Origin: a virus
Lineage: Duplodnaviria > Heunggongvirae > Uroviricota > Caudoviricetes
Virus record (IMG/VR): IMGVR_UViG_3300045988_019110
Span: 1 to 35,010 of that record
Strand: one strand, 5' to 3'
Length of the DNA: 35,010 nt
Within the stretch, counting starts at the first letter, position 1, and the number at the start of each line of letters is the position of its first letter. Below the pieces are notes generated by a model. The model made no database searches. It saw nothing but the letters and a program-made list of their open reading frames with translations, and had not been told where the DNA came from. The position numbers and the translations under genes were made by a program. Positions 1-35,010 of this stretch are shown piece by piece.

Positions 1-23
1 CCCTATTATATTGGGGTGTGCAA
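1..23 (-). promoter_or_regulatory. truncated copy of the TTGCAY-17-TACTAT promoter family, oriented leftward out of the window
   Basis: Bases 1-24 (ccctattatattggggtgtgcaag) match 34811-34834 and the reverse complement of 21713-21735; the -10 would lie beyond the window edge. Confidence 0.3.
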
Positions 24-130
24 GTAGTGTGCTAGAATAAGTTTGCGCCTAGTGTCGCACACGAAAAGCGGGTGGTTCCCGTCTGGCGCGTCAATCTTAA
101 CCTGTAACCTCTTAACCAAAGGATTAAAGA

Positions 131-9196: not shown

Positions 9197-10617
9197 TTCT
9201 TACTCCTACGTTTCATATACTCAAGGAGGATATCCTGCACCTGTTTTTTCTCGTCGGTGCGTGAAGTGACAACAGAATCTAACGTATCTTTAGCAATAAT
9301 CTTGTAGATAAAAACGGGGCGATTGTGCCCAGATTGCTTTTGTCGTGTTGGACCTATGCGCTCTATAACCTGCAAATAGTGCTCAAGGTTCCATCCCTGA
9401 CTGAAAAAAGCCATATGATGGCCGCCGTCTTGTAGCGATATACCATGCCCGGCTGACGCAGGATGCACGCATAATATTTCGATTTCACCGCGGTTCCACG
9501 CTTCCATCTGCTTATTACCCTTCGCACCTTTGGCAAACGCCTGGGCCTGCGGGAATCGCTTAAGGATGCGCTCCAGTTCGTGCTTAAACTGATAGGCCAC
9601 CAGTAACGGCGCTCCCTGTAACTCCTCGACAATGGACTCCAGAGCATCCAGTTTCGTGTCGTGTACTTTCTCCCAGTCTTTCGTTGCTTCTCCGTCTGGC
9701 CCTGACACATACACGGCACCAGATGCAATCTGCAAACACTTCGACGTCTTCGCTGCCGCGTTAGCCGCTTCAACTTCCCCGCTTTCCAGTTCTGCGAATA
9801 ATTTCTCCTCCATATCGATGTACGCCTGACGTGCTTTCTTAGGCAGGTCGATTTCAACCGGCACGATAATAGGCGCCTCGCAACCGAACCACTCGGCGGC
9901 GTCAATCGTGAGACTAACGTCCTTCATCTTCTGGTGGATTTCAGTATCCGCACCCGGGCGCGCATGATATTCACGCGCCATCGCCGACTTACCTTTCTGT
10001 ACCGAGTTAAACCAGCGGTCTGTGAATGCCGTGTACGATGAACCGAGGCGCTCGCCCGCGTCGATAAACCAGTTCTGACCCCACAGGTCTTTGAGGCCGT
10101 TGGGTGATGGTGTGCCTGTCAGGTTAATGAACCGCTTAACTTTACCAAATGCCACTTTGCTAAGCGCCTTTGCCCGCTTGCTTCCACCAGAACGGCTGCG
10201 GAATGACTTAAGCTTCGTGCTTTCATCGGCAACGATAACGGTAAAAGGCCAGTCATCTTTGCCGTAGTAGTCAATCAGCCATTCAATAACTTCGTAGTTT
10301 GTGCACACCACGTTAGCGTCAGACTCCAGCGCCGCGATGCGGCGCTTCTCTGAACCGGTCGCATCAACGACACGAAGACAAGGAAATTGCCATTTCTCTT
10401 GTTCTGCTGGCCATGTGCCAGACGCAACACGCAACGGGGCGAGAATTAACACGCGGTCGTCATCATTAAGTTGGCCGTTGCGGAACAGTCTGTTTAGAAC
10501 CCACATTGTCGCGGAACTTTTGCCCGCGCCCATCGAAGCCCAAATATTACAGCGCGGATGTCGCAGCATGAACGAAGTCATGAGCTTCTGGTACTCGCGC
10601 CTTTGAAACTTAGACAT
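9193..10617 (-). CDS. SNF2/DEAD-like superfamily 2 helicase
   Basis: Walker A-like ASMGAGKSS and DExx-box VIVADESTK; start re-set to ATG at 10617 (GAGG Shine-Dalgarno), since track N-terminal extension overlaps the upstream gene. Confidence 0.7.
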   Translation of the reverse strand: MSKFQRREYQKLMTSFMLRHPRCNIWASMGAGKSSATMWVLNRLFRNGQLNDDDRVLILAPLRVASGTWPAEQEKWQFPCLRVVDATGSEKRRIAALESDANVVCTNYEVIEWLIDYYGKDDWPFTVIVADESTKLKSFRSRSGGSKRAKALSKVAFGKVKRFINLTGTPSPNGLKDLWGQNWFIDAGERLGSSYTAFTDRWFNSVQKGKSAMAREYHARPGADTEIHQKMKDVSLTIDAAEWFGCEAPIIVPVEIDLPKKARQAYIDMEEKLFAELESGEVEAANAAAKTSKCLQIASGAVYVSGPDGEATKDWEKVHDTKLDALESIVEELQGAPLLVAYQFKHELERILKRFPQAQAFAKGAKGNKQMEAWNRGEIEILCVHPASAGHGISLQDGGHHMAFFSQGWNLEHYLQVIERIGPTRQKQSGHNRPVFIYKIIAKDTLDSVVTSRTDEKKQVQDILLEYMKRRSKK

Positions 10618-11293
10618 GATTGGCCTCGTAAACTGCTTTTGCGAAACCTCGTGGGGTGAGGCTGCGGATTGTCTTTGTTCTGGCGCTCTTTCCGCCGAGT
10701 TTAGCCCAACCAGGGTTATCCCCGCTATCAGCGGCAACTACAGCAACGTCGGGCATAACAAACCCATTGCCTACCCATAGGCACGTCTTTTTAACATAGG
10801 CATCCCGCGCTGGGATAACATCCGGAAACATTGGATGCGTGTCGTCTTCCGGTAGATAGCCGCCGTATTCGTGCGGGTTGAACACATAATCAGGCTTACG
10901 CCATAAAGATGAAAGAACACTAACCGGGTTCTCAATCATATAGGGTACGTTATACTTTTTAGCCAGACGTGCCGCCACTTTGCATGTAATCACGGCCTCT
11001 ACCTGAAACGTCGGGTTATTCTTGCGCTTAGCTTCGAAATGGCGCGACCCACTAACGGCTAAATCCGTGCATGGGGGGAACGAAAAAATAATATCTGGCG
11101 CAACCTCGAAGTCGAATTTATTATCAATCCACGCGTTTATATAGTGGATGTTCTCGTGTTCAACCCTCGCGCCCAATCGTGCGTAGTCTCCGTGGTCCGC
11201 GCCATCATAGTTGAAACAATAGCAAGTATGGCCTGCTTCTGCCCACGGCCGGGCCATAAGGCCCGAACCGTCAAACAATGACCAGACAATCAT
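10610..11293 (-). CDS. compact DNA cytosine-C5 methyltransferase-like protein
   Basis: 227 aa with motif I-like LFDGSGL, motif IV-like FPPCT (catalytic Pro-Cys), motif VI-like IENPV and GNGFV near C-terminus; ATG overlaps upstream stop. Confidence 0.5.
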   Translation of the reverse strand: MIVWSLFDGSGLMARPWAEAGHTCYCFNYDGADHGDYARLGARVEHENIHYINAWIDNKFDFEVAPDIIFSFPPCTDLAVSGSRHFEAKRKNNPTFQVEAVITCKVAARLAKKYNVPYMIENPVSVLSSLWRKPDYVFNPHEYGGYLPEDDTHPMFPDVIPARDAYVKKTCLWVGNGFVMPDVAVVAADSGDNPGWAKLGGKSARTKTIRSLTPRGFAKAVYEANHV

Positions 11294-11777: not shown

Positions 11778-12095
11778 TTATAATTCCTTATATTGTTGGG
11801 GTATGTGCTTACTATAATAGCTCGCTATTAGGGTGTCAACCTGTTTAACCGAACCAACGACAAAAACATTCGCGCCACGTTTTCGGAATCTTTCATGTTC
11901 ACGTAACTGGTGCGGGTCTGGCTTCGTGTTTTCGTCTTTCTTCACCTCGACGAACCAGACGATGCCGCCAGGGAGAATTACCAGCAGGTCGGGAGCGCCG
12001 GAACGTCCTTCGTAAGACAGCTTACGAACGAGGCCCCCCAGGGCCTCGAATCGCTCTTTTGCGTATTTCTGTATTTTGCCCTCAGGCGTACTCAT
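11778..12095 (-). CDS. VRR-NUC domain nuclease
   Basis: 105 aa; PD-(D/E)XK-type motif GAPDLLVILPGGIVWFVEVKK typical of VRR-NUC. Confidence 0.6.
   Translation of the reverse strand: MSTPEGKIQKYAKERFEALGGLVRKLSYEGRSGAPDLLVILPGGIVWFVEVKKDENTKPDPHQLREHERFRKRGANVFVVGSVKQVDTLIASYYSKHIPQQYKEL
11811..11839 (-). promoter_or_regulatory. sigma70-type promoter P1 (TTGACA-17-TATAGT) with palindrome in spacer
   Basis: On - strand: TTGACA (11839-11834), 17-nt spacer containing AATAGCgaGCTATT, TATAGT (11816-11811); overlaps the 3' end of the VRR-NUC ORF. Confidence 0.5.
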
Positions 12096-12297: not shown

Positions 12298-15200
12298 TTA
12301 CTTGGCATAACGTTTTAACTCCTGACCTTCTGCTACAAGAGGAAACCCCTCGGCCCATTCCGGTAATTCACACATCAACCGCTCGAGTTCAGCGACATTG
12401 TATTCCGGCGCATCTGGAGTTTCGCACACCAGTTCATCGTGTACCGAGAGTACGATAGGATACCCACCACGCTCAACGTTAATCATCGCATAGGCAAGTA
12501 AATCACGGCACAGCGCCTGAACAATGTTTTCGCAGGCCTTGCCGCCGTGTGTGTACAGGGTAGTCCATTGGCGGGTTAACTGGTTTTCGCCTTGATACTT
12601 GATTCGCACATTCGTGTTTACCCGTCCGTCTTCATCTGTTTCCTTTGTCACACTAACCCCGATTCCCGGATAGGAAAGGATACGACCTGACGGCAACTCC
12701 ATACACAACCACCAACCCGGAACCTTCCTGCCGGATGAATCAAATTCTACAGTGCGCCATATGCGGATAGCCCTTTCCCCGTTCCTGCGCAAGTGCGCTC
12801 CCGCCCAAAATTCACGACCAGGGTTACGAACAGCGGCTAAAATTCCGTCTTTAAGGTCGCGCCAGAAAGCTACTGTTTCCGGGTGTGACTCGCGCCACAT
12901 ACGCTTGATCGCGTCGCATGTGCGCCACACTTTCTTGTCCAGAATATACGACGGTCGGTCGTCCTTTTCGCCCGGATGCGGCGGTCGCTTTGCTTCCTGG
13001 ATACGCGCCCACTCATAACCGCGTGCGGTAGCTGCCCATATGTGGTCAGGGAATGTACCGTCCATTGTTTTAGCCATCTCAATAAGGTCGAGGCCTAAGT
13101 TTTTGGCGAACGTAACGAACGCTCCGACACCCCCCTCATAGCCTAGGCCAAGCTCGCAGTTATGCGCCACAAGAAAGCCAGAGTCTGAGGCTATAAGAAA
13201 ACGGTTGCCGTCTTCCACATCAATCAGGTCGTACACCGGCTCGCAGTAGGTTAATTTCCCGCTCAAGTTCAGCAATGCGGGCAACGGCTGCATCGTACTT
13301 TCGTTGAAGCTCGGGTATTTGCCGTCTGTTTCGGCAGTTTTCAGAACGGCTGACAAACCGAATGTTTCCAGGTTCGTAGTTACCGTCTGTGTCGATTCTA
13401 TCCATTTCGAGGTTCGGGTCATCCCAGCCTTCCAGAGTTTGAACATATCTAAGAAAAGACCTTTTATCAGTCCTCCACTGGTCGAATACCGTGATGCCTC
13501 TTGCCCCGTAGTTTTTATAACCCTTATCCCTGGGGCTTGTTGTTCGCGTGATCGCCGCTGACAGCCGGTTGAGTAATCGCGTTCTGTGCGCATCATCCGG
13601 CATTGCGTCTTCGTAGCAGAAATACTGTTTACGATATTTTTTTGTTGCTTCAAGGGCGCAGCGGTTGCATTGAGTGGTTTTACCAGCTCTGACGTTGTCA
13701 TAATAGACCCGCCCCGGCATCTCTCCGCAATCACATTGGACGAGTAGTTGTCTTTGGCCTTGTCGTTTTGGTAACTCGCGCAGGATAACCAAGCGTCCAT
13801 ACCTCTCTCCAGGGCGAGGCCCATCATATATCTGTTTGAAGCGAGTTGCTTTGCCTGCTTCCAGGAATGCGCCAAGATTTTGTGGTCTTCGGTCATTAGC
13901 ACCCCGTCCACATTTATTACCGGTTTCCACCCCATAAGGTGCGCGCCTTTTGTATTCACCCATTTTTCACCGCTCCATACTTTATCTGTTGATGTAACCG
14001 CCATAATATCCTTAAATCCGCCATTGGTCAAAACTTGGGTATGGCGGTGAAGGCAGGCCTTACCAATCTGGCGTAAATCTTTACGTTCCTTCTTAATGTC
14101 GTCTGGGTCCATTCCGAACATCTTGCCCGCGGTTACACAATAAATGTCCAGTCCGGCACGGAACGTATCGAGCGCGGTTTCTTCACCTGCCAGCCACGCA
14201 AGTCCGCGGCCTTCAACGTTAGAGTAATCGGCAACAACAAACTTATGTCCTGCTTCCGGTATGATGCAGCTGCGAACCGTCGATGCCGTTAGCTTGGCTA
14301 CGTCAAATCGGCGGTGAGCACGACCCTTAAGTAACGCTGAAATGCCTTTATCCAGTTCATCATCATGATAGTACCCGCGGGCCAAGTTCTGCGGCTGGAA
14401 GCCTTTACCTGCCCATCGCAGAGTACGTTTTGCCCCACCGTACTGCAGGCAACCGCGACGGCGGTCGTCCGACGAGCGGCCTAACAGCAATGGGTTGTAT
14501 TTCGTGGACGCTGTTGACGCGGCACCGAGGCGCATTTCGATAATCGTACGGGCATCGTCCGGTAAATCATCGTCCGCCAACAGGTCATTCAGCGTCGACT
14601 TCTGTGCGTTGTGGATGCGGTGTGCGGGGGCAAGTTCACGCAGAATAGGTAGAAAGTCTTTACCAGTAAGTGAGCCGCCGTATTTGCGTTGGGCTTCTTC
14701 CTGTAACTGCGCTTTGTGTTTCTCCACAGCTTCAATCGCGGCTTCCGCCAGTGCAACGTCAACCTTAAACCCACGGTCATTGATTAACTGGTCCAGCTCC
14801 AGTACACGGTCCTCGAACTCTGAGTTACCCCACCGCGGCAGTTTATGGAAGACTTCACGCATCGCAGTGATGTCGCTCACGGCGTACTTGATGAACAGTG
14901 CCCACTCGTCCGGGTGTGTTTCGGCGGTGTAACGGCGGATTTTGTAGTTCTTCGGCGTCGGTTTAGAAAAACGCTTAATCAGCGCCTTGCCGCGTTTATC
15001 TTTCGCGTTGTCCGCGGATACACCCAGCACTTCACATAGCGCATCAAGCGAACCTGGTAGCGCGTGACGAAACGCCCAAATCATCGTATCAATGGTGTTG
15101 CTTACAGGAATGTCAAAGCCCCAGCAGTGCTTCATGATGAGCCTGTCGAACATTGAGCCGTTGTGCCACACCATCTTGATGCGGCTGTTTGGCTTAACCA

Positions 15201-15396
15201 GGCGGCGCAAGGCGCGATGCAAATCCCCCGGCATGTCGCTGCCGTCGGTGCAGTCCCATACCTGCACAGGCTCGTCGTCAAAAGCATAGGTACAGATAAG
15301 CACTTCTGTAGTCGGATGCTCGGCGTAAGCGTAGGAGCCGACTTTCTTTAAATTGGCTTCGGAGAATGTTTCAAAGTCTAAGAACAGGTAACTCAT
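12298..15396 (-). CDS. DNA polymerase, family A, with 3'-5' exonuclease domain; intein-containing
   Basis: 1032-aa ORF; N-terminal exo motif LFLDFETFS; motif A VVADYSNVEGRGLAW; motif B split as RQIGKA / CELGLGYEGG by a ~299-aa insertion with intein hallmarks. Confidence 0.85.
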   Translation of the reverse strand: MSYLFLDFETFSEANLKKVGSYAYAEHPTTEVLICTYAFDDEPVQVWDCTDGSDMPGDLHRALRRLVKPNSRIKMVWHNGSMFDRLIMKHCWGFDIPVSNTIDTMIWAFRHALPGSLDALCEVLGVSADNAKDKRGKALIKRFSKPTPKNYKIRRYTAETHPDEWALFIKYAVSDITAMREVFHKLPRWGNSEFEDRVLELDQLINDRGFKVDVALAEAAIEAVEKHKAQLQEEAQRKYGGSLTGKDFLPILRELAPAHRIHNAQKSTLNDLLADDDLPDDARTIIEMRLGAASTASTKYNPLLLGRSSDDRRRGCLQYGGAKRTLRWAGKGFQPQNLARGYYHDDELDKGISALLKGRAHRRFDVAKLTASTVRSCIIPEAGHKFVVADYSNVEGRGLAWLAGEETALDTFRAGLDIYCVTAGKMFGMDPDDIKKERKDLRQIGKACLHRHTQVLTNGGFKDIMAVTSTDKVWSGEKWVNTKGAHLMGWKPVINVDGVLMTEDHKILAHSWKQAKQLASNRYMMGLALERGMDAWLSCASYQNDKAKDNYSSNVIAERCRGGSIMTTSELVKPLNATAAPLKQQKNIVNSISATKTQCRMMRTERDYSTGCQRRSREQQAPGIRVIKTTGQEASRYSTSGGLIKGLFLDMFKLWKAGMTRTSKWIESTQTVTTNLETFGLSAVLKTAETDGKYPSFNESTMQPLPALLNLSGKLTYCEPVYDLIDVEDGNRFLIASDSGFLVAHNCELGLGYEGGVGAFVTFAKNLGLDLIEMAKTMDGTFPDHIWAATARGYEWARIQEAKRPPHPGEKDDRPSYILDKKVWRTCDAIKRMWRESHPETVAFWRDLKDGILAAVRNPGREFWAGAHLRRNGERAIRIWRTVEFDSSGRKVPGWWLCMELPSGRILSYPGIGVSVTKETDEDGRVNTNVRIKYQGENQLTRQWTTLYTHGGKACENIVQALCRDLLAYAMINVERGGYPIVLSVHDELVCETPDAPEYNVAELERLMCELPEWAEGFPLVAEGQELKRYAK
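13159..14055 (-). other. intein inserted in PolA motif B
   Basis: Pol-frame residues 448-746: N-terminal CLHRHTQVLT (block A), LMTEDHKIL (block B), C-terminal VYDLIDVEDGNRFLIA...FLVAHN followed by +1 Cys (blocks F/G). Confidence 0.65.
13220..13963 (-). CDS. HNH endonuclease-like ORF nested inside the intein in an alternate reading frame
   Basis: 247-aa ORF, different frame from the polymerase; ATG with GGAG 9 nt upstream; motifs GRLVIL...CDCGEM...CNRC and YKNYGARGITVFDQW...DRIDTDGNYEPGNIRFVSRSEN. Confidence 0.5.
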   Translation of the reverse strand: MGEYKRRAPYGVETGNKCGRGANDRRPQNLGAFLEAGKATRFKQIYDGPRPGERYGRLVILRELPKRQGQRQLLVQCDCGEMPGRVYYDNVRAGKTTQCNRCALEATKKYRKQYFCYEDAMPDDAHRTRLLNRLSAAITRTTSPRDKGYKNYGARGITVFDQWRTDKRSFLRYVQTLEGWDDPNLEMDRIDTDGNYEPGNIRFVSRSENCRNRRQIPELQRKYDAAVARIAELEREINLLRAGVRPD

Positions 15397-15455: not shown

Positions 15456-16091
15456 TCAACGGCGACGACGTTCGCGGCGAGGTGCTTCATCTTCTTCTTC
15501 GTCTTCGTCTTCCAGGTCGTCGGTGCTTGCTACTACACTGGAACCCCCGAAGCGTTTACCTTCGCCCGCATACTTGATGCCGAGGATGGTAGCGCACAAG
15601 TTTTTCCATTCTTTGTGCCACCATAGCTCTACAGATACGTTTGCTACACACCCGCTGTATACCTGCTCGCCTTCTACTTCCTGCCCGTCGATGTTGAAAT
15701 CAGGCTCGGTTTGTTTTTCGCCTTTAGCTGAGGTCATAATTACAGGTTGGCGGTTGTTAGTAGCGCGGAAATACAGACCTTCTTCAAAATCTTCAATCGG
15801 ATTGTCACGCATTGCCAGGTCACGGACGCAGCATTTGTCTGCGTGGTGGTCTACGCCGTAGTTGGCCTTCATCCATTTTTCAGCAGCAGCTGTCCCGATT
15901 GCCTCTGTTACAACTTCCAGAGCGGTGTCGTAAAGCGCGTCGATTTGAGGGTGGTCAGGCTGCATAAGAACCGTAACCTGATATTTGCCCTTAATCAGTT
16001 TACCTGTTTTCTTGTCCTCAGAGTCGGCAGCACGTTCAAATACGTTAACCCATGCAGTGTTTACTTTACGCAGATTCAGTTTCAGTCCCAC
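15456..16091 (-). CDS. putative ssDNA-binding protein (DUF2815-like) with acidic C-terminal region
   Basis: 211 aa, GTG start with GAGGG RBS; acidic tail DDLEDEDEEEDE; sits between Cas4-like exonuclease and PolA, a position typical of phage SSB in this module type. Confidence 0.4.
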   Translation of the reverse strand: MGLKLNLRKVNTAWVNVFERAADSEDKKTGKLIKGKYQVTVLMQPDHPQIDALYDTALEVVTEAIGTAAAEKWMKANYGVDHHADKCCVRDLAMRDNPIEDFEEGLYFRATNNRQPVIMTSAKGEKQTEPDFNIDGQEVEGEQVYSGCVANVSVELWWHKEWKNLCATILGIKYAGEGKRFGGSSVVASTDDLEDEDEEEDEAPRRERRRR

Positions 16092-16154: not shown

Positions 16155-16183
16155 ACTATAATAGCTCGCTATTCGGTAGTCAA
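16155..16183 (-). promoter_or_regulatory. sigma70-type promoter P2 (TTGACT-17-TATAGT) with palindrome in spacer
   Basis: On - strand: TTGACT, 17-nt spacer containing GAATAGcgagCTATT, TATAGT; near-identical to P1. Confidence 0.5.
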
Positions 16184-16187
16184 CACT

Positions 16188-17444
16188 TTATTCTAAATCT
16201 TCTTCACTAACCTGATTCCACTCAGGACGTTTGTCGTCTGCCGTTGCTACGCATGGCGCGCCCGGCTTACGGGTAATAAAGTCTTTCAGTTCTTCTTCCG
16301 GTATGACTTTAATAGCTTCGGTCGGTGTCATCAGCACTTCTTTAGTCAGCTTATCGCCGTAGAGTTCTGTTACTTTCTCCGTGTCTTTCCACGCACGGTT
16401 GCCCATTTTACCTTCAACCAGCTTGTACCCAGGAACTTTCTTACCAGAATGCAACGCGGCGGCCATAGCTTTCTCAACCTTGTCGATGTGCTGGCGCAAC
16501 AACGGCAACTTCTCATACTCAGCGACGAGTTGCTCCGGCGTAAGTTCAAGCGCGAAGTCGTCTTCAAGTTCTTCCGCCAGTACAGAATTAACGGTTCTTG
16601 TACGCGCGGCGCACTGTTCTGAGAACCGGCACCACTGACAACCATCGACAGACGGCTTGAAGTCCGACGCTTTCAGGTTCTTCTTGCCGCGGGAATAAGC
16701 ATCAAGGGCCAACAGCGCCCGTTTCTGCGCGAACTTAGCGAACAGTTCCAGACCTTCGACCGAGATGTCCCACTCCGACGCGCCGCCAGCGTACGGCTGG
16801 AAGATTACCAGACGAACAACTTTGATGTTATAACGTCTCTTGAGTCGGCGATAAACACCGAGAGCGTAAAGCATAAGCTGCTTGTTTTCTTTCGCTTCAA
16901 CACGATGCCGTCCTGTTTTCAGGTCGCCGATAATGAGCATGTGCTCGTCGGTGTTAGCCTGTTCCTGAACGGCAACAAGGTCAGCAGTCCCGAACGTCTC
17001 GACGCCTTCGTAACCCGGATGCAATACCTCAGTAAGATTGACGCGCATCTCGAGCTTGGAATAAGTCGCGACATCGATAATCGGTTTGCAGTAGTCGGTG
17101 TACTTTCGCACCTGCTCAATCATGTCGGCCGTAATCAGTACCGCGCCTTTCATCGGGCTGATTAGCGCCTTAATCTGGCCTTTACCCTCATCCAGCACGT
17201 AAGCACCGACTTCACGCTCTAACGGCAACGCGGTTCCTCGAATATAGGCGTTGAGATGGACCTCAGCTATGGTGTGGCACGCGGTCCCCGTAACAGCAGC
17301 TTTACCTGACGTGTTAGGAATATCTTTTTCACAGGCCAGTGATGCACTGCACGTCAGCCACTTTTTAGCGCCTGACGGCGACAGTAAGGCGTGCACATCA
17401 TTATTGCCGCCACGTTCCTTTAAAATCATACCCTGCTCTCCCAC
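16188..17444 (-). CDS. PD-(D/E)XK Cas4/RecB-like exonuclease (DUF2800-like)
   Basis: 418 aa; N-terminal LSPSGAKKWLTC motif and C-terminal Cys cluster CQWCRFSEQC typical of Cas4-like iron-sulfur nucleases. Confidence 0.6.
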   Translation of the reverse strand: MGEQGMILKERGGNNDVHALLSPSGAKKWLTCSASLACEKDIPNTSGKAAVTGTACHTIAEVHLNAYIRGTALPLEREVGAYVLDEGKGQIKALISPMKGAVLITADMIEQVRKYTDYCKPIIDVATYSKLEMRVNLTEVLHPGYEGVETFGTADLVAVQEQANTDEHMLIIGDLKTGRHRVEAKENKQLMLYALGVYRRLKRRYNIKVVRLVIFQPYAGGASEWDISVEGLELFAKFAQKRALLALDAYSRGKKNLKASDFKPSVDGCQWCRFSEQCAARTRTVNSVLAEELEDDFALELTPEQLVAEYEKLPLLRQHIDKVEKAMAAALHSGKKVPGYKLVEGKMGNRAWKDTEKVTELYGDKLTKEVLMTPTEAIKVIPEEELKDFITRKPGAPCVATADDKRPEWNQVSEEDLE

Positions 17445-17698
17445 TGGTCAATTAAATGTCGTGTCTTATGGTCACAATGCATAGCCCAGCCATACATAGA
17501 CTCGAAGACATAAAAGTCAGGTTTGGCGAAAGTCGTGCGCTTAATCTGTGACACGTGACGGCCTATATCTTTAGGCCGCGGTACTTTGCCTAAGTACGCC
17601 ATCTCTTCCATCAGGTGCGCACCGGACGGCGCACGTAACAGCCATAGCGCCTCCGTGTTATCCCGCCTGTCAACGGCGCGGTAGAGTTGGTAAATCAT
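17426..17698 (-). CDS. hypothetical protein
   Basis: 90-aa ORF overlapping the downstream gene start by 19 nt. Confidence 0.35.
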   Translation of the reverse strand: MIYQLYRAVDRRDNTEALWLLRAPSGAHLMEEMAYLGKVPRPKDIGRHVSQIKRTTFAKPDFYVFESMYGWAMHCDHKTRHLIDQWESRV

Positions 17699-17740
17699 AT
17701 TTCCGACCCTCAGTTAAAGCGGCCCGAAGGCCGCCTATAG

Positions 17741-18223
17741 TTATTCTTCTTCGAAATACTTGTTCTTGATTGCCGTCAGGCGTTCCAGGTACTCGGCCAG
17801 GTCTTCGTCTTTAATCGCGGTAATCTTCATCTTCTTACCGGTGAACTCTTCCAGCAGTTCGTCGGAATCATCACACGCGGCATCGCTAGGACCTTCGTTA
17901 ATCGCATCGTCGATAGCCTGAATCTGGCCACGAAGAGACTTGTAATCGACTTCTTCTTTCTCTTCTTCCGGCTCTGGCGTCGGTTCCTCTACTTTAGCTT
18001 TACGCGGCTTGCGTTTTGGCTTCTCTTCTTCCGCCGGTTTGGTGTCAACGATGTCTTCACCTTCGACCGGGATTTCTTTTGTTGTCTCGATTGTTGCGGT
18101 TTGTTCAACGACCCCGGCGACTAATGCAGTTTTTGCAACATTAACTTGTTTTGCACTGTTCGCAGCAATCAGTTCATGTGCAACTACGAAACGTTCCAGT
18201 AATTTTAAAAATTGTTCTAACAT
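17741..18223 (-). CDS. acidic, low-complexity early protein of unknown function
   Basis: 160 aa, Glu/Asp-rich with a short basic KPKRKPRKAK patch; first gene downstream of promoter P3. Confidence 0.45.
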   Translation of the reverse strand: MLEQFLKLLERFVVAHELIAANSAKQVNVAKTALVAGVVEQTATIETTKEIPVEGEDIVDTKPAEEEKPKRKPRKAKVEEPTPEPEEEKEEVDYKSLRGQIQAIDDAINEGPSDAACDDSDELLEEFTGKKMKITAIKDEDLAEYLERLTAIKNKYFEEE

Positions 18224-18254
18224 TTGTTTCTCTCCTCTCGTTTGGTATGGGCTA

Positions 18255-18284
18255 ACTATAATAGCTAACTATTCAGGTTGTCAA
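18255..18284 (-). promoter_or_regulatory. sigma70-type promoter P3 (TTGACA-18-TATAGT) with palindrome in spacer
   Basis: On - strand: TTGACA, spacer containing GAATAGttagCTATT, TATAGT; divergent from the HTH gene at 18349. Confidence 0.5.
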
Positions 18285-18348
18285 TGGGCTTTCCTAAAAT
18301 AATTAATATGGTACTATTCACATATCAACTGACTAAGGAGTAATTGAC

Positions 18349-18564
18349 ATGCAACCATCTGAACTAGGCATCCGTGTAGAGCAACGCCGCAAAGAACTCG
18401 GCATCTCTCAACGCCGTCTGGCGGTCCTGGCTGGCGTTTCCCAGGGCGCGATTAATCAGCTGGCGCTCGGTGTAACTCAGGACGTACGCCCGGCAACACT
18501 GTTCAAGCTGGCGGAAGTGCTGGAAGTAGACGCCAAGTGGCTGGCGTTCGGTGAAGGGGCTTAA
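18349..18564 (+). CDS. XRE-family helix-turn-helix transcriptional regulator (Cro/CI-like)
   Basis: 71 aa; classic HTH GISQRRLAVLAGVSQGAINQL; AGGAG RBS; lone + strand gene between - strand operons. Confidence 0.7.
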   Translation: MQPSELGIRVEQRRKELGISQRRLAVLAGVSQGAINQLALGVTQDVRPATLFKLAEVLEVDAKWLAFGEGA

Positions 18565-18578
18565 GCCCCTTTCTTTTT
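18554..18578 (+). terminator. rho-independent terminator after HTH gene
   Basis: Palindromic GGGGCTTAAGCCCC hairpin overlapping the stop codon, followed by TTTCTTTTT. Confidence 0.5.
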
Positions 18579-18580
18579 AC

Positions 18581-20821
18581 CTATTCTAAATCCTCCTCTG
18601 TCACCACCAGCATTTCATTCGGCTCATATATCGTCTTTGGTCTTAATCTGTCACCCATCTTTTCCGGTATCCGGTAGGTGCCCGGTATAACTTCACCGTT
18701 AACATCGCACCCTAACATCAACTCACCGTCTTTCAGCATCTTCTCGAGATGATGGTTGGTTATGGCGTGGTCGCCCGAATTCGCCACTATCTGCCGTTGT
18801 GTAAAACCTCGTCCGGTGTCGTCTGACTGTTGCAGGTCCTCCAGCGCGGCAAGTATTGATTCCTTACGCCCTTCATCCTTTCCACGTTTTACAGCGTTCT
18901 TTACGTTTTCTTTACCTTCTTTCGTCAGCCCTTCTTCCCGCTCTTTCTCCTCGTCAGTTTTGAACGGCTCGAAACCCCACGGCATCAGCACAAGCGCCTT
19001 GTGCGGCTCAGGCAGGTCCAGGTTTACGATTGTGCCGTATTCCTCTGTGCTACCCAGGAACTCAACCGCACGGTACTCTTTCGGCGGTGGTGCTTCACGG
19101 AACTGTACCGACTCCAGCACCATGCCAACCGTCTTCTGTTGAGGCCCGTGCTTAAATTTAGAGTGGTATACGTTTATCTGACGGTCGGTAGCGCGTTCAA
19201 TTGTCAGTTCCACGTCAACGCCCGCATACAGCGCGCCGCTGCCACGGGCTTTCTTTCCGCCCTTCGGTGTGTGGTGAACAACACCTACCGCGGCTTTAGT
19301 CGCATCACGCACTTCTTTCAGGATGGCGATAACTTTACCCATACCGATTGCCGTTGATGAACTGTTCTCGTCAAACTTATCAATCGTCAGGGCCAGGGTC
19401 TGGTTGAGGGTGTCAAACGCGACCATGCCGATAGGTTCATCGCCAGCGGTTTCACGCATTAACTTAATCAGGTTTTTCAGTTTTCCGACTTCGCCCATGT
19501 CGATGACATGTACATAATCTTTACCTTCCTCTCCGTATTTAGCCGCGAGTGCATCAATACGTGTGCGGGTAGCCGCGCCACCCTCACCGTCGATATAGAA
19601 ATGGTGACAGCGCTGGGTATCCGCCCCTGCGAAGCGATAGCCAGCGGCGCTAAGGTACATCACCCCCAGCGTATAGAATGATTTGTACGTGCCAGATTCT
19701 CCGACGATATCCCAGATACAATCCGACGGCATGTACCCTTCTACGACGAAATCAGCCTTTACCGGTTCTGGTAATTCGTCCTCCTCGAAGTCCTCGTCGT
19801 CTTCCAGGTCGTCCAGGCTGCATGAAACGGATTCACGCGCACCCCATCCGATAGCCTCAGCCACTTCACTAAACGGCAGCCCGGTCGCGTCGCACGCATA
19901 CTTCCACACCTCTTTCGGTGACATGCCTTCGGTTGCCGTAATGTCGGTGTCGTGAATCATGGTTACGTTCGGTGCTTCGTAGCCCTCTCGCGGGAAACAC
20001 AGCAGGAAGTCGTCCGGCCGCGGTGTCGGGTCGCTGTAGTTTTCCGCATGTTCTGGTGTGGCGGGCATCTTAAGGCCGCGAGGTGTCATGACACCGCCGT
20101 ACTCAAAAGCCAGTGCCTCGAACGCGTCTGTAAACGCGGTGCGCAGTTCTTCCGGTATCTGGTAATCCGATGCGCTGCTCACCTCGTAATCCGGGATGCC
20201 TTCCAGTAACTCATCCGGGTCAATCAGGTCGTTGCGACGCGACCAGATAACCTGAGAGCCAACCGGCGGCAGGTACATCGGTTGGGACAGAGTAAACCCG
20301 CTGCGGTCAGCGCCCATGCCTTTGAAGAAGTGCTCCAGCAATCCATGACGAACACGGATGATGTCGCCACCCTCAACAGGACTGGCCAGCGGCATGACGA
20401 CACGAAAGCGCGGAGACTCATCGGTATGGGATGCCGTGGTATATAGGCACATCGCCTGGCGGCTGCGCTTAACCAGGCGCACAGCTTCCTGATACTCTTC
20501 CGGCGTTGCACTGTCGAAGTCCAGATACGCCAGCGACGATTTGCTTACAGACGCATCACAGCGATAGAAGAAGCCTTTACGCGCTTGCTTAAAGTCGCCG
20601 GTTTCCAGGTCTTTTACGGTGCTGTGAGTAGAGTCGCACGCGGCGGTGATATATCCCGGCGCGGTCTTCGGGTTAATCCCGTCTCGGACAGAATCGAGCG
20701 GCTGGATTAACTCTTTCAGGTCGTCCAGTGTTGCCGTGTGTGTAGTTCTGACGTTTATATCCTTTTTCTCTGCTCGCGCGTTGCGGCGTGACCACGAGTA
20801 GGATAAAATTACATCGGACAT
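18581..20821 (-). CDS. primase-helicase (AEP-type primase-polymerase N-terminal domain fused to RecA-like helicase)
   Basis: 746 aa; AEP-like motifs AYLDFD and TTASHTDESPRF; Walker A GESGTYKS and VVHHTPKGG-type helicase motif. Confidence 0.7.
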   Translation of the reverse strand: MSDVILSYSWSRRNARAEKKDINVRTTHTATLDDLKELIQPLDSVRDGINPKTAPGYITAACDSTHSTVKDLETGDFKQARKGFFYRCDASVSKSSLAYLDFDSATPEEYQEAVRLVKRSRQAMCLYTTASHTDESPRFRVVMPLASPVEGGDIIRVRHGLLEHFFKGMGADRSGFTLSQPMYLPPVGSQVIWSRRNDLIDPDELLEGIPDYEVSSASDYQIPEELRTAFTDAFEALAFEYGGVMTPRGLKMPATPEHAENYSDPTPRPDDFLLCFPREGYEAPNVTMIHDTDITATEGMSPKEVWKYACDATGLPFSEVAEAIGWGARESVSCSLDDLEDDEDFEEDELPEPVKADFVVEGYMPSDCIWDIVGESGTYKSFYTLGVMYLSAAGYRFAGADTQRCHHFYIDGEGGAATRTRIDALAAKYGEEGKDYVHVIDMGEVGKLKNLIKLMRETAGDEPIGMVAFDTLNQTLALTIDKFDENSSSTAIGMGKVIAILKEVRDATKAAVGVVHHTPKGGKKARGSGALYAGVDVELTIERATDRQINVYHSKFKHGPQQKTVGMVLESVQFREAPPPKEYRAVEFLGSTEEYGTIVNLDLPEPHKALVLMPWGFEPFKTDEEKEREEGLTKEGKENVKNAVKRGKDEGRKESILAALEDLQQSDDTGRGFTQRQIVANSGDHAITNHHLEKMLKDGELMLGCDVNGEVIPGTYRIPEKMGDRLRPKTIYEPNEMLVVTEEDLE

Positions 20822-20878: not shown

Positions 20879-21112
20879 TTATTCCAGGTCTTCTAAAGTA
20901 GCGGTCATTCCGCGAACTTCAGCGACAGCACTATATTTCCCGCCGACATTTTTCACGACACCGGATTTAACCAACACCTTCAATGACCCTTCAATGATGG
21001 CGGAACTATAGTACTTAAAATAACTGCGGCGCAAGTCGATAACACTGCACGACCCTTTTTTACGTGTTAATGAAACGACCGCCGTAAATACGCGTGACTG
21101 GAACTCGGTCAT
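20879..21112 (-). CDS. hypothetical protein
   Basis: 77-aa ORF translationally coupled to the upstream HTH gene; C-terminus LEDLE. Confidence 0.4.
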   Translation of the reverse strand: MTEFQSRVFTAVVSLTRKKGSCSVIDLRRSYFKYYSSAIIEGSLKVLVKSGVVKNVGGKYSAVAEVRGMTATLEDLE

Positions 21113-21279
21113 TTCACGTTCTCCTTAATCCACGCTTCCACTTTCTCCGGGTCAAACGTACCTGGCTGCCGGCGGCCCATAATGCGGGTACAGCAATCAG
21201 GGAACTTCCCGCTCTTTAACCAGTTATTCAGCGTGCGACGAGTAACCCCGATGCGCTCTGCTACTTCATTCTGCGTCAT
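21109..21279 (-). CDS. AlpA-like helix-turn-helix DNA-binding protein
   Basis: Start re-set to ATG at 21279 with GAGGG RBS; MTQNEVAERIGVTRRTLNNWLKSGKFP HTH; candidate TTGATT-17-TATACT promoter upstream. Confidence 0.5.
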   Translation of the reverse strand: MTQNEVAERIGVTRRTLNNWLKSGKFPDCCTRIMGRRQPGTFDPEKVEAWIKENVK

Positions 21280-21620
21280 TCTCAAACCCTCATTATCAGT
21301 TAACAAAATCGAGTATACATTGCGAATAATGGGAAATCAAACATAATCGCACCTATTGACATTATGAAAATCTTCGTTTAAGGTGCTTCTATATCTTAGT
21401 TACTTTGATTCTTGTTCACCTTGTAAACCCCGCCGAAAACGAGCGCCCAACGCGAAGTGTTAGGCGGCAGTTTACTGAACATAAGAATTATCGTAACTTT
21501 CCTTCCTTAATATCTCCGGTTGCCCTGGGCAAGCTCTATTCTCATCGGCAGCATATCTCTTAAGTAACTGATTTTCTTAATGTACCGTAGATTCACAACC
21601 GTAAAAATGTAACCCTTACC

Positions 21621-21647
21621 GGGCAGGCTTAAGGCCTGCCCTTTAGT
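21621..21647 (+). terminator. terminator-like hairpin inside the 470-bp early intergenic region
   Basis: GGGCAGGC-ttaag-GCCTGCCC 8-bp stem followed by TTTAGTT on the + strand, with no + strand ORF upstream. Confidence 0.4.
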
Positions 21648-21713
21648 TACCAAGTAATAAGAATAAAGGCACAACCCTACCTGAAGAATCACAACGGCAA
21701 TGTAACTATTCTC

Positions 21714-21742
21714 TTGCACACCCCAACATAATAGGATACTAT
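21714..21742 (+). promoter_or_regulatory. sigma70-type promoter (TTGCAC-17-TACTAT) for rightward small-gene operon
   Basis: TTGCAC 21714-21719, 17-nt spacer accccaacataatagga, TACTAT 21737-21742; same element family as 23326, 34832(-) and window start. Confidence 0.45.
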
Positions 21743-21776
21743 TCACTTATCGAAACGAGACATAAGGAATTCAGAA

Positions 21777-21995
21777 ATGAACAAAGCGACCGCAAGCGTA
21801 GTTTCCGCAATCAAAGAAGTTTACGGCATCGATATTTCAGAGCGCGTAATTATCGGGAACAAACGCAACTTCTTTACGTTCGACACCGACGGAATGGATG
21901 AAAATGATTTTAACAACGTACAACGTTTCGCTAACGATAAAGGGCTTCGTAACGAGCCTGCGGGTTACAAGAAATTCGCTATCTACTTTAAATAA
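21777..21995 (+). CDS. hypothetical protein
   Basis: 72-aa ORF with aagga RBS, first gene after promoter. Confidence 0.45.
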   Translation: MNKATASVVSAIKEVYGIDISERVIIGNKRNFFTFDTDGMDENDFNNVQRFANDKGLRNEPAGYKKFAIYFK

Positions 21996-23240: not shown

Positions 23241-23325
23241 CTCATTTTTGTTCTATTTCACCAAACGCAACAATCGAAGCGACTATTGCAGGAGATGCAA
23301 CAATACAAACACCAATAAAATTTAC

Positions 23326-23354
23326 TTGCACACTTATATAGAATAGGATACTAT
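23326..23354 (+). promoter_or_regulatory. sigma70-type promoter (TTGCAC-17-TACTAT) with perfect GAATAG-N4-CTATTC palindrome
   Basis: TTGCAC 23326-23331; TACTAT 23349-23354; palindrome GAATAGgataCTATTC overlapping the -10. Confidence 0.45.
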
Positions 23355-23385
23355 TCAGTTACACAAACGAGAGGAGAGGCAGAAG

Positions 23386-23535
23386 ATGGTTACTTTGATG
23401 ATTATGGAATTTGAAAACAGCACCGCAACTTATCGCGAGATGACTATGGTGCAGGCGTACCACCTGGCCTCAAACGGCAACTTCTACAAGGCTCAAATCA
23501 TCAACGAGTTTGGGGTGATTGACTATGAATTTTAG
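23386..23535 (+). CDS. hypothetical small protein (49 aa)
   Basis: ATG with GAGGAGAGG RBS; not in ORF track (<60 aa). Confidence 0.35.
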   Translation: MVTLMIMEFENSTATYREMTMVQAYHLASNGNFYKAQIINEFGVIDYEF

Positions 23536-26999: not shown

Positions 27000-27021
27000 A
27001 TCTATTTTCTGTAATGACTAG

Positions 27022-27050
27022 TTGACTATTACCTACGACCCTACTATATT
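27022..27050 (+). promoter_or_regulatory. sigma70-type promoter (TTGACT-17-TATATT)
   Basis: TTGACT 27022-27027, 17-nt spacer, TATATT 27045-27050; followed by AACGAGA leader and ATG at 27084. Confidence 0.5.
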
Positions 27051-27083
27051 TACTTCGCCGACAACGAGAACGGGGTAGAGAAG

Positions 27084-28360: not shown

Positions 28361-28642
28361 ATGGCACGCACTGTTGCATCGAGATTCACTGATATTGAAT
28401 CTGCGATAGAAGAAGCTGTTTATAGCAAATTCTGTAACCCCTCTGCGACACATAACTACGGGGTTATCATTAAATACGGCAAGTTTGAAATCAGGAGAGT
28501 GCGCGCCGATCGTCCGCACGAGTTTTTATGGACCACAGAAAGCCTAGTCCCGCGGTGCCACGTTTACACAAGTGGCGCGCACACTATTTTTGTGGACATC
28601 ACTAAGAAAGACATTACTGTCACTAAAGGAGAGACAAATTGA
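28361..28642 (+). CDS. hypothetical protein
   Basis: 93-aa ORF. Confidence 0.4.
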   Translation: MARTVASRFTDIESAIEEAVYSKFCNPSATHNYGVIIKYGKFEIRRVRADRPHEFLWTTESLVPRCHVYTSGAHTIFVDITKKDITVTKGETN

Positions 28643-28875
28643 TTACCAGCATCCCTAAACTGATTGAAGAGTATGGAAATATGTCTGAGCCCTGCCGACA
28701 AACCGGCATCTGCGAAATGACAATTGCGAAGTACAGCAAAGACGTGAATTGCGAGCGCCACGTAATTTATAACAACCGTCTTATGACGCACGTTAAGACA
28801 AGTCCGGTGTTATTCACGCGCCGTGGTATCACTAAAACTGAGCAACGCATTGCTAAAGAGGAGAGCGGGGGATGA
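28639..28875 (+). CDS. hypothetical protein
   Basis: 78-aa ORF, start overlaps upstream stop. Confidence 0.4.
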   Translation: MITSIPKLIEEYGNMSEPCRQTGICEMTIAKYSKDVNCERHVIYNNRLMTHVKTSPVLFTRRGITKTEQRIAKEESGG

Positions 28876-34496: not shown

Positions 34497-34775
34497 TTAG
34501 CGATAGACTGTACCGACACTAAAACCATTGACCATTGTAGGGTTCTGCATCAGACCTTTGTTTACTTTTGCTTCCCATACTGTGGGGGTAATCACTACAT
34601 CACAACGTTTGAACGACTTCTTCAGAATTGCTGCAAATCTTTTAGCAGCCGATTCGGATTTGCAAGTAACTGAAACATAGATTCTGTCCAGACCAAAAAC
34701 CGTAATTTCGTGGTAAGCAATGCCGGATTTCACCAAAGTTTCTTTAATAGCAGCTTTATCTGCCGGTGTCATCAT
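34497..34775 (-). CDS. hypothetical protein
   Basis: 92-aa ORF with GGGAGG RBS, downstream of - strand promoter at 34804..34832. Confidence 0.45.
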   Translation of the reverse strand: MMTPADKAAIKETLVKSGIAYHEITVFGLDRIYVSVTCKSESAAKRFAAILKKSFKRCDVVITPTVWEAKVNKGLMQNPTMVNGFSVGTVYR

Positions 34776-34803
34776 TTAAGCACCTCCCGTTTAAGTTATC
34801 CGA

Positions 34804-34832
34804 ATAGTACCCTATTATATTGGGGTATGCAA
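34804..34832 (-). promoter_or_regulatory. sigma70-type promoter (TTGCAT-17-TACTAT) driving reverse-oriented cassette
   Basis: On - strand: TTGCAT, spacer accccaatataataggg, TACTAT; followed by palindrome CTATTCGAATAG at 34881-34892 in the same region. Confidence 0.45.
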
Positions 34833-35010
34833 GCGCGAACACCAACTATTCCAGTTATTCCGCTCAATTGTAGATGTTGGAATAAACTATTCGAATAGTT
34901 GACTTTTCACTGAAAATATGATAAGCTCCACCTGAGCTTGTGAAGTATGAACAAGCGACCGCGGCGCGGGCAGGTAACGGAGCGGGACGTAAGTCCTGAG
35001 TGTAGTTACG

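Follow-up and report, generated by a model that had tools for sequence, protein, structure and literature searches.

The Cro protein of phage 434 is a single-domain regulator of 71 amino acids (aa) with a five-helix XRE fold, and in complexes of 434 proteins with DNA, such as 3CRO, a pair of glutamines reads the outermost adenine of the 14-bp operator ACAA-N6-TTGT. The C1 repressor of phage P1 uses many scattered operators, each overlapping a promoter; this large, unrelated protein acts as a monomer on asymmetric 17-bp sites and serves to maintain lysogeny. The controller (C) proteins of restriction-modification (R-M) systems, among them C.AhdI, C.BclI and C.Esp1396I, are small XRE-fold dimers that recognize promoter-overlapping palindromes mainly at their own operon, and their binding, with autoregulation, yields a delay or timing switch. 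Here we analyzed a 35,010-nucleotide (nt) stretch of viral DNA (positions 1 to 35,010 of IMG/VR virus record IMGVR_UViG_3300045988_019110; hereafter the window), in which a gene at 18349..18564 on the + strand encodes a 71-aa helix-turn-helix (HTH) protein of the Pfam family HTH_3 that resembles 434 Cro. Our analysis suggests, with a probability of about 0.62, that this protein is a genome-wide repressor that binds dispersed operators of the form (G/T)AATAG-N4-CTATT(C/A). Its function would most likely be that of a Cro without a CI, outside any lysis-lysogeny switch.

We found that the protein matches Pfam HTH_3 (PF01381) with 47.2 bits against a cutoff of 23 (E 2.3e-12, residues 11-65). This match and the list of open reading frames (ORFs) both agree with an earlier note on this DNA, which had described a 71-aa XRE/Cro-like HTH gene on the + strand between genes of the - strand. 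A phmmer search of PDB sequences returned phage 434 Cro (71 aa; 1zug/2cro/3cro) as the best match (E 5.4e-7, residues 6-68 against 4-64), followed by the DNA-binding domain of 434 repressor and by P22 C2. A single-sequence AlphaFold2 model with a predicted local distance difference test score of 84 has five helices, at residues 5-17, 21-28, 32-39, 48-57 and 62-66, of which helix 3 (VSQGAINQ) is the recognition helix. When this model was compared with the PDB by Foldseek the top match was again 434 Cro (2cro; TM scores 0.73/0.79, 40% identity). The 434 Cro and 434 repressor structures matched with TM scores of ~0.73-0.79 and 36-41% identity, and SinR, HipB and R-M controller proteins followed. 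The protein is thus of the 434 Cro single-domain type in its length of ~70 aa, in consisting of a five-helix XRE domain only and in its significant sequence and fold similarity, and 434 Cro is its best match by both measures. Also conserved with 434 Cro are the glutamines that open helix 2 and helix 3 and an RP motif after helix 3. In the alignment Q32, which opens helix 3, corresponds to Q29 of 434 Cro and Q28 of 434 repressor, and Q21, which opens helix 2, corresponds to Q18 and Q17.

We found six copies of GAATAG-N4-CTATTC with at most one mismatch in the window, against 0.06 expected, and none of 100 shuffles reached six. The core AATAG-N4-CTATT is by far the most repeated 5-N-5 dyad of the window, with perfect copies at 11816, 16160, 18260, 21730, 23342 and 34803 and one-mismatch copies at 18305 (the HTH gene's own promoter), 27017, 32719 and 34894. 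All six perfect copies lie within intergenic sigma-70 promoters, in one of three registers, which we call class A (dyad centre near -18.5), class B (near -12.5) and class C (near -33.5).

The class A promoters (11816, 16160 and 18260, all leftward) follow the pattern TTGACA-N4/5-AATAGnnnnCTATTATAGT, in which the dyad lies in the spacer and touches the -10; they have spacers of 17-18 bp and are the top-scoring promoters of the whole window. One of them (11811..11839, -; TTGACA-17-TATAGT, operator core 11816-11829) stands 5' of small genes, a methyltransferase gene and a helicase gene, and another (16155..16183, -; TTGACT-17-TATAGT, operator core 16160-16173) stands 5' of the genes for a Gp2.5-like single-stranded DNA-binding (SSB) protein and a DNA polymerase. 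The third, P3, is divergent from the HTH gene. In class B (21730+, 23342+, 34803- and the weak site 18305+) the pattern is TTGCAC-17-TACTAT with the dyad over the -10. The class B promoter at 21706..21743 (+; TTGCAC-17-TACTAT, core 21730-21743 over the -10) drives 21777..21995 and small rightward genes. That at 23318..23356 (+) contains the sole perfect 16-mer, GAATAGGATACTATTC (23341-23356), and drives 23386..23535 (DUF7170) and downstream genes, while that at 34802..34840 (-; TTGCAT-17-TACTAT, core 34803-34816) drives 34497..34775. Class C (27017+ and 34894+) has imperfect dyads centred on the -35 TTGACT. These are ACTAG-TTGA-CTATT (27017-27030) in the promoter at 27017..27050 (+), which has the -10 TATATT, and AATAG-TTGA-CTTTT (34894-34907) at 34885..34907 (+), with an everted pair CTATTC|GAATAG on its 5' side. 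Since the dyad keeps its own sequence while its distance from the hexamers changes by 6 and 21 bp, it would lie outside what polymerase recognizes, and since it always overlaps a core promoter it has what we read as the signature of a repressor and its operators.

Like the 434 operators, the candidate operators are 14-bp dyads that have an outer adenine at a distance of 6.5 bp from a centre which is not itself conserved (compare ACAA-N6-TTGT), and the gene, like 434 cro, lies at a divergent promoter pair. Unlike 434, the window's phage is strictly lytic and has neither a CI partner nor an integrase nor a tandem OR1-OR3 array. The operators also differ from those of 434 in being single, dispersed over at least nine promoters and placed in three registers, with the half-site AATAG rather than ACAA. 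In its scattered, promoter-overlapping sites the candidate regulon is like that of P1 C1, but its sites are symmetric, its protein is small and of the Cro type, and lysogeny plays no part. The R-M C proteins are similar in size and fold and in binding palindromes that overlap promoters, and they are among the fold matches; unlike them, the 71-aa protein has no adjacent R-M genes and its candidate sites are spread over ~10 promoters. We rejected an R-M controller as the identity of the protein, since its neighbours are replication genes and the sole methyltransferase gene (10610..11293) is 7 kb away in another operon. A type II antitoxin of the HipB or HigA kind was also rejected. The gene is monocistronic, lying between a promoter and a terminator of its own, and its two neighbours run on the other strand; the NCBIfam HipB and HigA models scored far below their cutoffs. 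A lambdoid Cro/CI lysis-lysogeny switch does not describe the locus either: no CI partner is present, each promoter has a single operator and the complete genomes of relatives have no annotated integrase.

The window is a Kagunavirus genome segment as judged by its match pattern, since a megablast search with 17700-19000 returned 444 phage records with Kagunavirus at the top (Escherichia phage 26, ~92% nt identity) and hundreds of Salmonella Jerseyvirus records at 80-90% nt identity. Guernseyvirinae, the subfamily that includes Kagunavirus, are siphophages described as strictly lytic (PMC12919940; PMC11990801). Consistent with this description and with the earlier note, which had seen neither an integrase nor a CI-like partner, no integrase is annotated in the relatives' complete genomes and no CI-type repressor partner was found for the HTH_3 gene. 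When the 71-aa protein was searched by tblastn against 50,697 phage records, 563 records matched and fell in three discrete identity classes: Kagunavirus (K), mostly at least 95% with two records at 90-95%; Jerseyvirus (J), ~51%; and a Cornellvirus-like group (C), ~41%. Our comparison set consisted of complete genomes of each protein type and 60 IMG/VR loci with at most 10 kb on each side of the gene.

We aligned the Kagunavirus footprints on their promoter flanks, leaving the motif itself out of the anchoring. The half-sites were almost invariant in 27-36 distinct orthologous promoters, whereas the central bases of the dyad and the bases between dyad and -35 varied freely. Purifying selection acts on the gene: 64 codons varied across the 36 distinct Kagunavirus alleles, 42 of them in a purely synonymous way, and the recognition helix had synonymous changes only, plus one G33S. 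Between genera both the helix and the operator change. Helix 3 reads VSQGAINQ in Kagunavirus, VSQSLITH in Jerseyvirus and VTQSAISH in Cornellvirus-type proteins, and the operators are GAATAG-N4-CTATTC, TAATAG-N4-CTATTA and TATTA-N6-TAATA, respectively. Kagunavirus and Jerseyvirus genomes have 2-6 perfect AATAG-N4-CTATT sites per 20 kb, at orthologous promoters; none was found in the Cornellvirus-type genomes examined, whose promoters carry TATTA-N6-TAATA. Jerseyvirus half-sites read TAATAG in 68 of 68 sites (36 of 36 distinct sequences). In Kagunavirus the flank is G where the -10 leaves it free, as seen at the -35-proximal side of class A (70 of 76) and at the downstream side of class B (61 of 61, C on the other strand). 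Where orthologous promoters match in all else, this G/T switch is what sets them apart (K gtgTTGACAcctGAATAG, J gtgTTGACAcctTAATAG), and the class C promoter shows the same flank difference; its site at 27017 is conserved in both genera with a genus-specific flank. Q21 and Q32 are invariant in the proteins of all three groups, and an A stands 6.5 bp from the dyad centre in each of the three operator types. In the three phage genera compared, the variant of the operator follows the type of HTH_3 protein. Together with the 434-Cro-like fold and the promoter position of the operators, this covariation indirectly supports the proposal of the earlier note that the HTH protein is the prime candidate for the factor that binds GAATAG-N4-CTATTC.

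The HTH gene (ATG 18349, TAA 18562-18564) has the Shine-Dalgarno sequence AAGGAG at 18335..18340 (+), 8 nt 5' of the ATG. AAGGA(G/A) is kept in all aligned Kagunavirus, Jerseyvirus and Cornellvirus-type upstream regions, with AAGGAA in one Kagunavirus sequence. The gene's own promoter has class B geometry and contains the weak operator AATATGGTACTATT (18305..18319, +), which has one mismatch to the core and overlaps the extended -10 (TG 18309-10, TACTAT 18312-17). The extended -10 TGgTACTAT (18309-18317) with a CTATTC half-site inside it (18314-18319) had been pointed out before, and is present; the -35 is poor (CTTTCC). This own-promoter site is nearly invariant in 36 distinct Kagunavirus sequences. 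Back-to-back with the gene, and divergent from it as previously described, is P3 (18284..18255, -), which consists of TTGACA (18284-18279), an 18-nt spacer and TATAGT (18260-18255). With 11 of 12 consensus matches P3 is the region's best sigma-70 match. Its spacer holds the class A operator TAATAGCTAACTATTC (18259-18274), and it drives 17741..18223, 17426..17698 and the exonuclease gene. Both genes that flank the HTH gene are on the - strand: 17741..18223, which has no Pfam match and belongs to PHROG 3127 (function unknown), and the AAA_25 primase-helicase gene at 18581..20821.

Terminator scanning and RNA folding placed an intrinsic terminator at 18556..18578 (+), which consists of GGGGCTTAAGCCCC (18556-18569) followed by TTTCTTTTT (18570-18578). 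Its stem GGGGC-TTAA-GCCCC, in whose loop the stop codon TAA of the gene falls, folds as a centroid hairpin of -13 kcal/mol. The palindromic hairpin noted earlier is therefore present, and its perfect dyad is peculiar to the window genome: in relatives the stem GGGGC/GCCCC and the run of T are conserved and the loop varies (TTAAC, TTAAT, TTGAC). The run of T is on the + side only; the convergent primase operon lacks one of its own (18553..18583) and ends 12 nt past the hairpin stem (stop codon 18581-18583, stem end 18569). Because of this lack, transcripts of the primase operon may continue across the HTH gene in antisense and enter the P3 operon. In a Cornellvirus genome, VSiA (L003 34354..37005), the primase-helicase gene follows the HTH gene directly and in the same orientation. 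A lone rightward HTH gene is therefore specific to Kagunavirus and Jerseyvirus and reflects an inversion of the primase block.

From these sequences we infer binding, dimerization on DNA, the sign of regulation and its timing; the earlier note had favoured a lytic-cycle timing switch over a lysogeny repressor. A weak promoter, reliant on its extended -10, would supply the protein, which would bind the dispersed operators as a symmetric dimer. Once bound it would occlude host RNA polymerase, which we propose because every operator overlaps a sigma-70 core promoter. Its targets would be the three leftward promoters of the replication module and the rightward promoters of small genes, with weaker action at the two promoters whose imperfect sites lie over the -35. 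As the protein accumulates after infection it would shut down or damp these strong promoters. Since its own promoter is weak and carries a one-mismatch operator, accumulation would come first and self-limitation later. In Kagunavirus this would take the form of late negative autoregulation through the own-promoter site, only at higher protein concentration.

Several observations weigh against this repressor proposal. Of about four specificity positions in the recognition helix, three are different between Kagunavirus and Jerseyvirus (G33/S, N36/T, Q37/H), yet the two genera have an identical 10-bp core; an operator change confined to the flank is less than the divergence of the helices would suggest. 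Jerseyvirus and Cornellvirus, conversely, share S33 and H37 despite having different cores. When we sought to work out a residue-to-base recognition code with the help of the 434 complexes, only the glutamine-adenine match was consistent and no clean rule emerged elsewhere, so we set this code aside. The covariation follows the species tree ((K,J),C), and any phage-encoded factor would therefore show it in part. In Jerseyvirus and Cornellvirus the HTH gene's own promoter has a half-site or degenerate site only, and autoregulation is therefore not a conserved feature. The promoter of the primase operon (21340..21312) has no operator, and control would therefore be broad rather than total. Finally, a second phage HTH protein, HTH_17, was found in 443 phage records, compared with the 444 that match the region's DNA, with a near-equal breakdown by organism. 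HTH_17 is otherwise nearly universal in Kagunavirus and Jerseyvirus, and the argument from its absence rests on one metagenomic contig.

A wider form of the repressor proposal, which we consider rather unlikely, holds that one Cro-sized protein and one dispersed operator family run most transcription in a virulent subfamily, and that the co-diversified variants are immunity groups that govern coinfection and superinfection as well as timing. In this wider form, which is just as unlikely at this point, the operators would sit at the three registers in early, replication and late-leading promoters.

We also consider it unlikely, somewhat further down the scale, that another phage protein, chiefly HTH_17, binds the palindromes, which would leave the HTH_3 protein a narrower role, for example one confined to the divergent promoters beside its gene or to host targets. 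The HTH_17 gene, excisionase-like and first in the primase operon (21109..21306, -; probable ATG 21279, 56-65 aa; identified with Pfam), lies 2.5 kb from the HTH_3 gene, which is thus not the sole HTH gene of this region; the earlier note had overlooked the second one. Kagunavirus and Jerseyvirus have the HTH_17 gene and Cornellvirus-type genomes lack it, which matches the distribution of the AATAG-N4-CTATT core, and its record count and organism breakdown, given above, also speak for it. The protein has weak MerR-type matches, and MerR-like proteins bind promoter spacers; its NCBIfam matches to 'excise' and BldC are both below cutoff. Spacer remodelling of the MerR kind would however be unneeded, because the class A spacers are already 17-18 bp, and small excisionase or BldC-type proteins typically bind direct repeats, not symmetric dyads. 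Furthermore, the allele tree of HTH_17 does not match the operator variants. Within Kagunavirus the protein is highly polymorphic (15 alleles, 61-100% aa identity) while the G-flanked operators are unchanged, and the G flank has a frequency of ~50% in every Kagunavirus HTH_17 allele class and 0% in Jerseyvirus. The allele of the window is 86-89% identical to Jerseyvirus alleles, nearer than to many Kagunavirus alleles, yet Jerseyvirus operators are T-flanked. The metagenomic contig mentioned above, the Kagunavirus contig L032, is without HTH_17 and still has six perfect operators. At L032 12559..13144 two unrelated ORFs, one of 149 aa and one of 47 aa (Cys-rich, zinc-ribbon-like), take the place of HTH_17 and the next gene.

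It is quite improbable, in our estimate, that the operators are bound as proposed but serve mainly in competition between phages ('heteroimmunity') and not in internal timing. On this account early protein from a Kagunavirus already resident in the cell would switch off the promoters of a second, superinfecting phage whose operators are of that type, and the variants would define immunity groups, a detail we hold to be equally improbable. The three discrete protein types with matched operator variants in one subfamily speak for such a role, and the HTH gene is among the region's most diverged conserved genes between genera, with 51% identity as compared with 63-89% for its neighbours. However, Kagunavirus and Jerseyvirus share the 10-bp core, and cross-repression is therefore likely, which would make the immunity groups leaky; these genera also mostly infect different hosts.

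Little likelihood attaches to the palindrome being an intrinsic promoter element, or a host-factor site derived from -10-like sequences (TATAGT, TACTAT), with the HTH protein unrelated to it. The right half-site does overlap or abut the -10 in classes A and B, and because TATAGT resembles the half-site (ATAG), recognition by RNA polymerase would explain part of the conservation. But the other half-site, in the spacer or 3' of the -10, is likewise invariant, although the spacer bases beside it vary; the dyad takes three different registers relative to the hexamers, and the sigma-70 consensus hexamers do not include the genus-specific flank base. Jerseyvirus and Cornellvirus, which both infect Salmonella, have different palindromes, so a host transcription factor is an unlikely binder; it is further disfavoured by the common core of Kagunavirus (E. 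coli) and Jerseyvirus (Salmonella), phages of different hosts. A NinH-like protein (28639..28875) was rejected as the binder, since its similarity (K-J 61%, K-C 66-68%) does not follow the operator type.

Guernseyvirinae orthologues with the same gene at the same position occur in more than 500 phage records, under the names 'Cro', 'transcriptional repressor DicA' and 'XRE family transcriptional regulator'. These GenBank names are automatic or homology-based only. The NCBIfam DicA model (NF007257) scored 43.7 bits against a cutoff of 101, with the N-terminal HTH half alone of this 135-position model matching, and because the score is far below the cutoff the DicA name is no family assignment. 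In the literature searched we found no published account of the operators, the three promoter registers or the genus-specific variants, and no published experiment on the 71-aa protein or on the timing of Guernseyvirinae transcription. The kind of gene is already known under its Cro, repressor and XRE labels; the genome-wide operator network appears undescribed. In an RNA-seq time course of a Kagunavirus (PMC12645636) just four genes are early, one of which, _008, is listed with an 'HTH domain'; it may or may not be the HTH_3 gene, and the gene order of the close relative XY1 does not decide the numbering.

Kagunavirus and Jerseyvirus are among the siphophages most often isolated for biocontrol of E. 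coli and Salmonella, and Guernseyvirinae are being adopted as small synthetic-biology chassis (PMC11990801). If the repressor proposal is true, the 71-aa protein and its 16-bp site would give a compact promoter map of the subfamily and a means to engineer expression or to render cells refractory to infection. It would also explain why 'repressor' and 'Cro' annotations occur in phages declared free of lysogeny genes, a recurrent issue in phage-therapy safety assessment. The concept is that of an ordinary Cro-type repressor-operator system; its value would lie in annotation and in a testable design and not in a new principle.

Other parts of the window also contain the motif. The divergent promoter region 34802..34907 has at least six half-sites, including a perfect everted 16-bp palindrome, AACTATTCGAATAGTT (34885-34900), that abuts the class C site, and may be a multi-operator control region. 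Positions 1..24 are a 95.8% copy of 34810-34833, which belong to the class B promoter and operator there, and the window edge therefore cuts another leftward promoter that bears an operator. Between operator-bearing promoters and the first start codons we observed a shared leader, AAACGAG(A)GGAG, at 18224..18245, 21750..21760, 23365..23376 and 27060..27070. The leader is partly a Shine-Dalgarno sequence, and its ACGAG portion is conserved beyond that. A paralogue of 21777..21995 at 34947 was considered and rejected, since the similarity is at the nucleotide level only and the reading frame differs.

The divergent primase and rightward operons are separated by a gene-poor stretch of 470 bp (21307..21776), which had no Rfam match; an Rfam scan of the whole window gave zero matches. 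It holds two strong hairpins on opposite strands, at 21621-21641 (+) and 21466-21444 (-), and could be an origin or encode an unannotated small RNA. Among the replication proteins, the primase-helicase (18581..20821), the exonuclease (16188..17444) and a 77-aa protein (20879..21112), all encoded on the - strand, have the same acidic tail, E(E/D)DLE, and the SSB-like protein (15456..16091, -) has an acidic stretch near its C-terminus. These acidic tails recall the C-terminal tails that dock T7 gp2.5 and gp4 onto polymerase. The DNA polymerase ORF (12298..15396, -) encodes 1032 aa and is 88.6% identical to an Ent1 gene annotated as an intein-containing polymerase. The polymerases of VSiA, PhiSTP2 and XY1 have ~720-750 aa, and because of this difference in length the window genome probably bears an intein.

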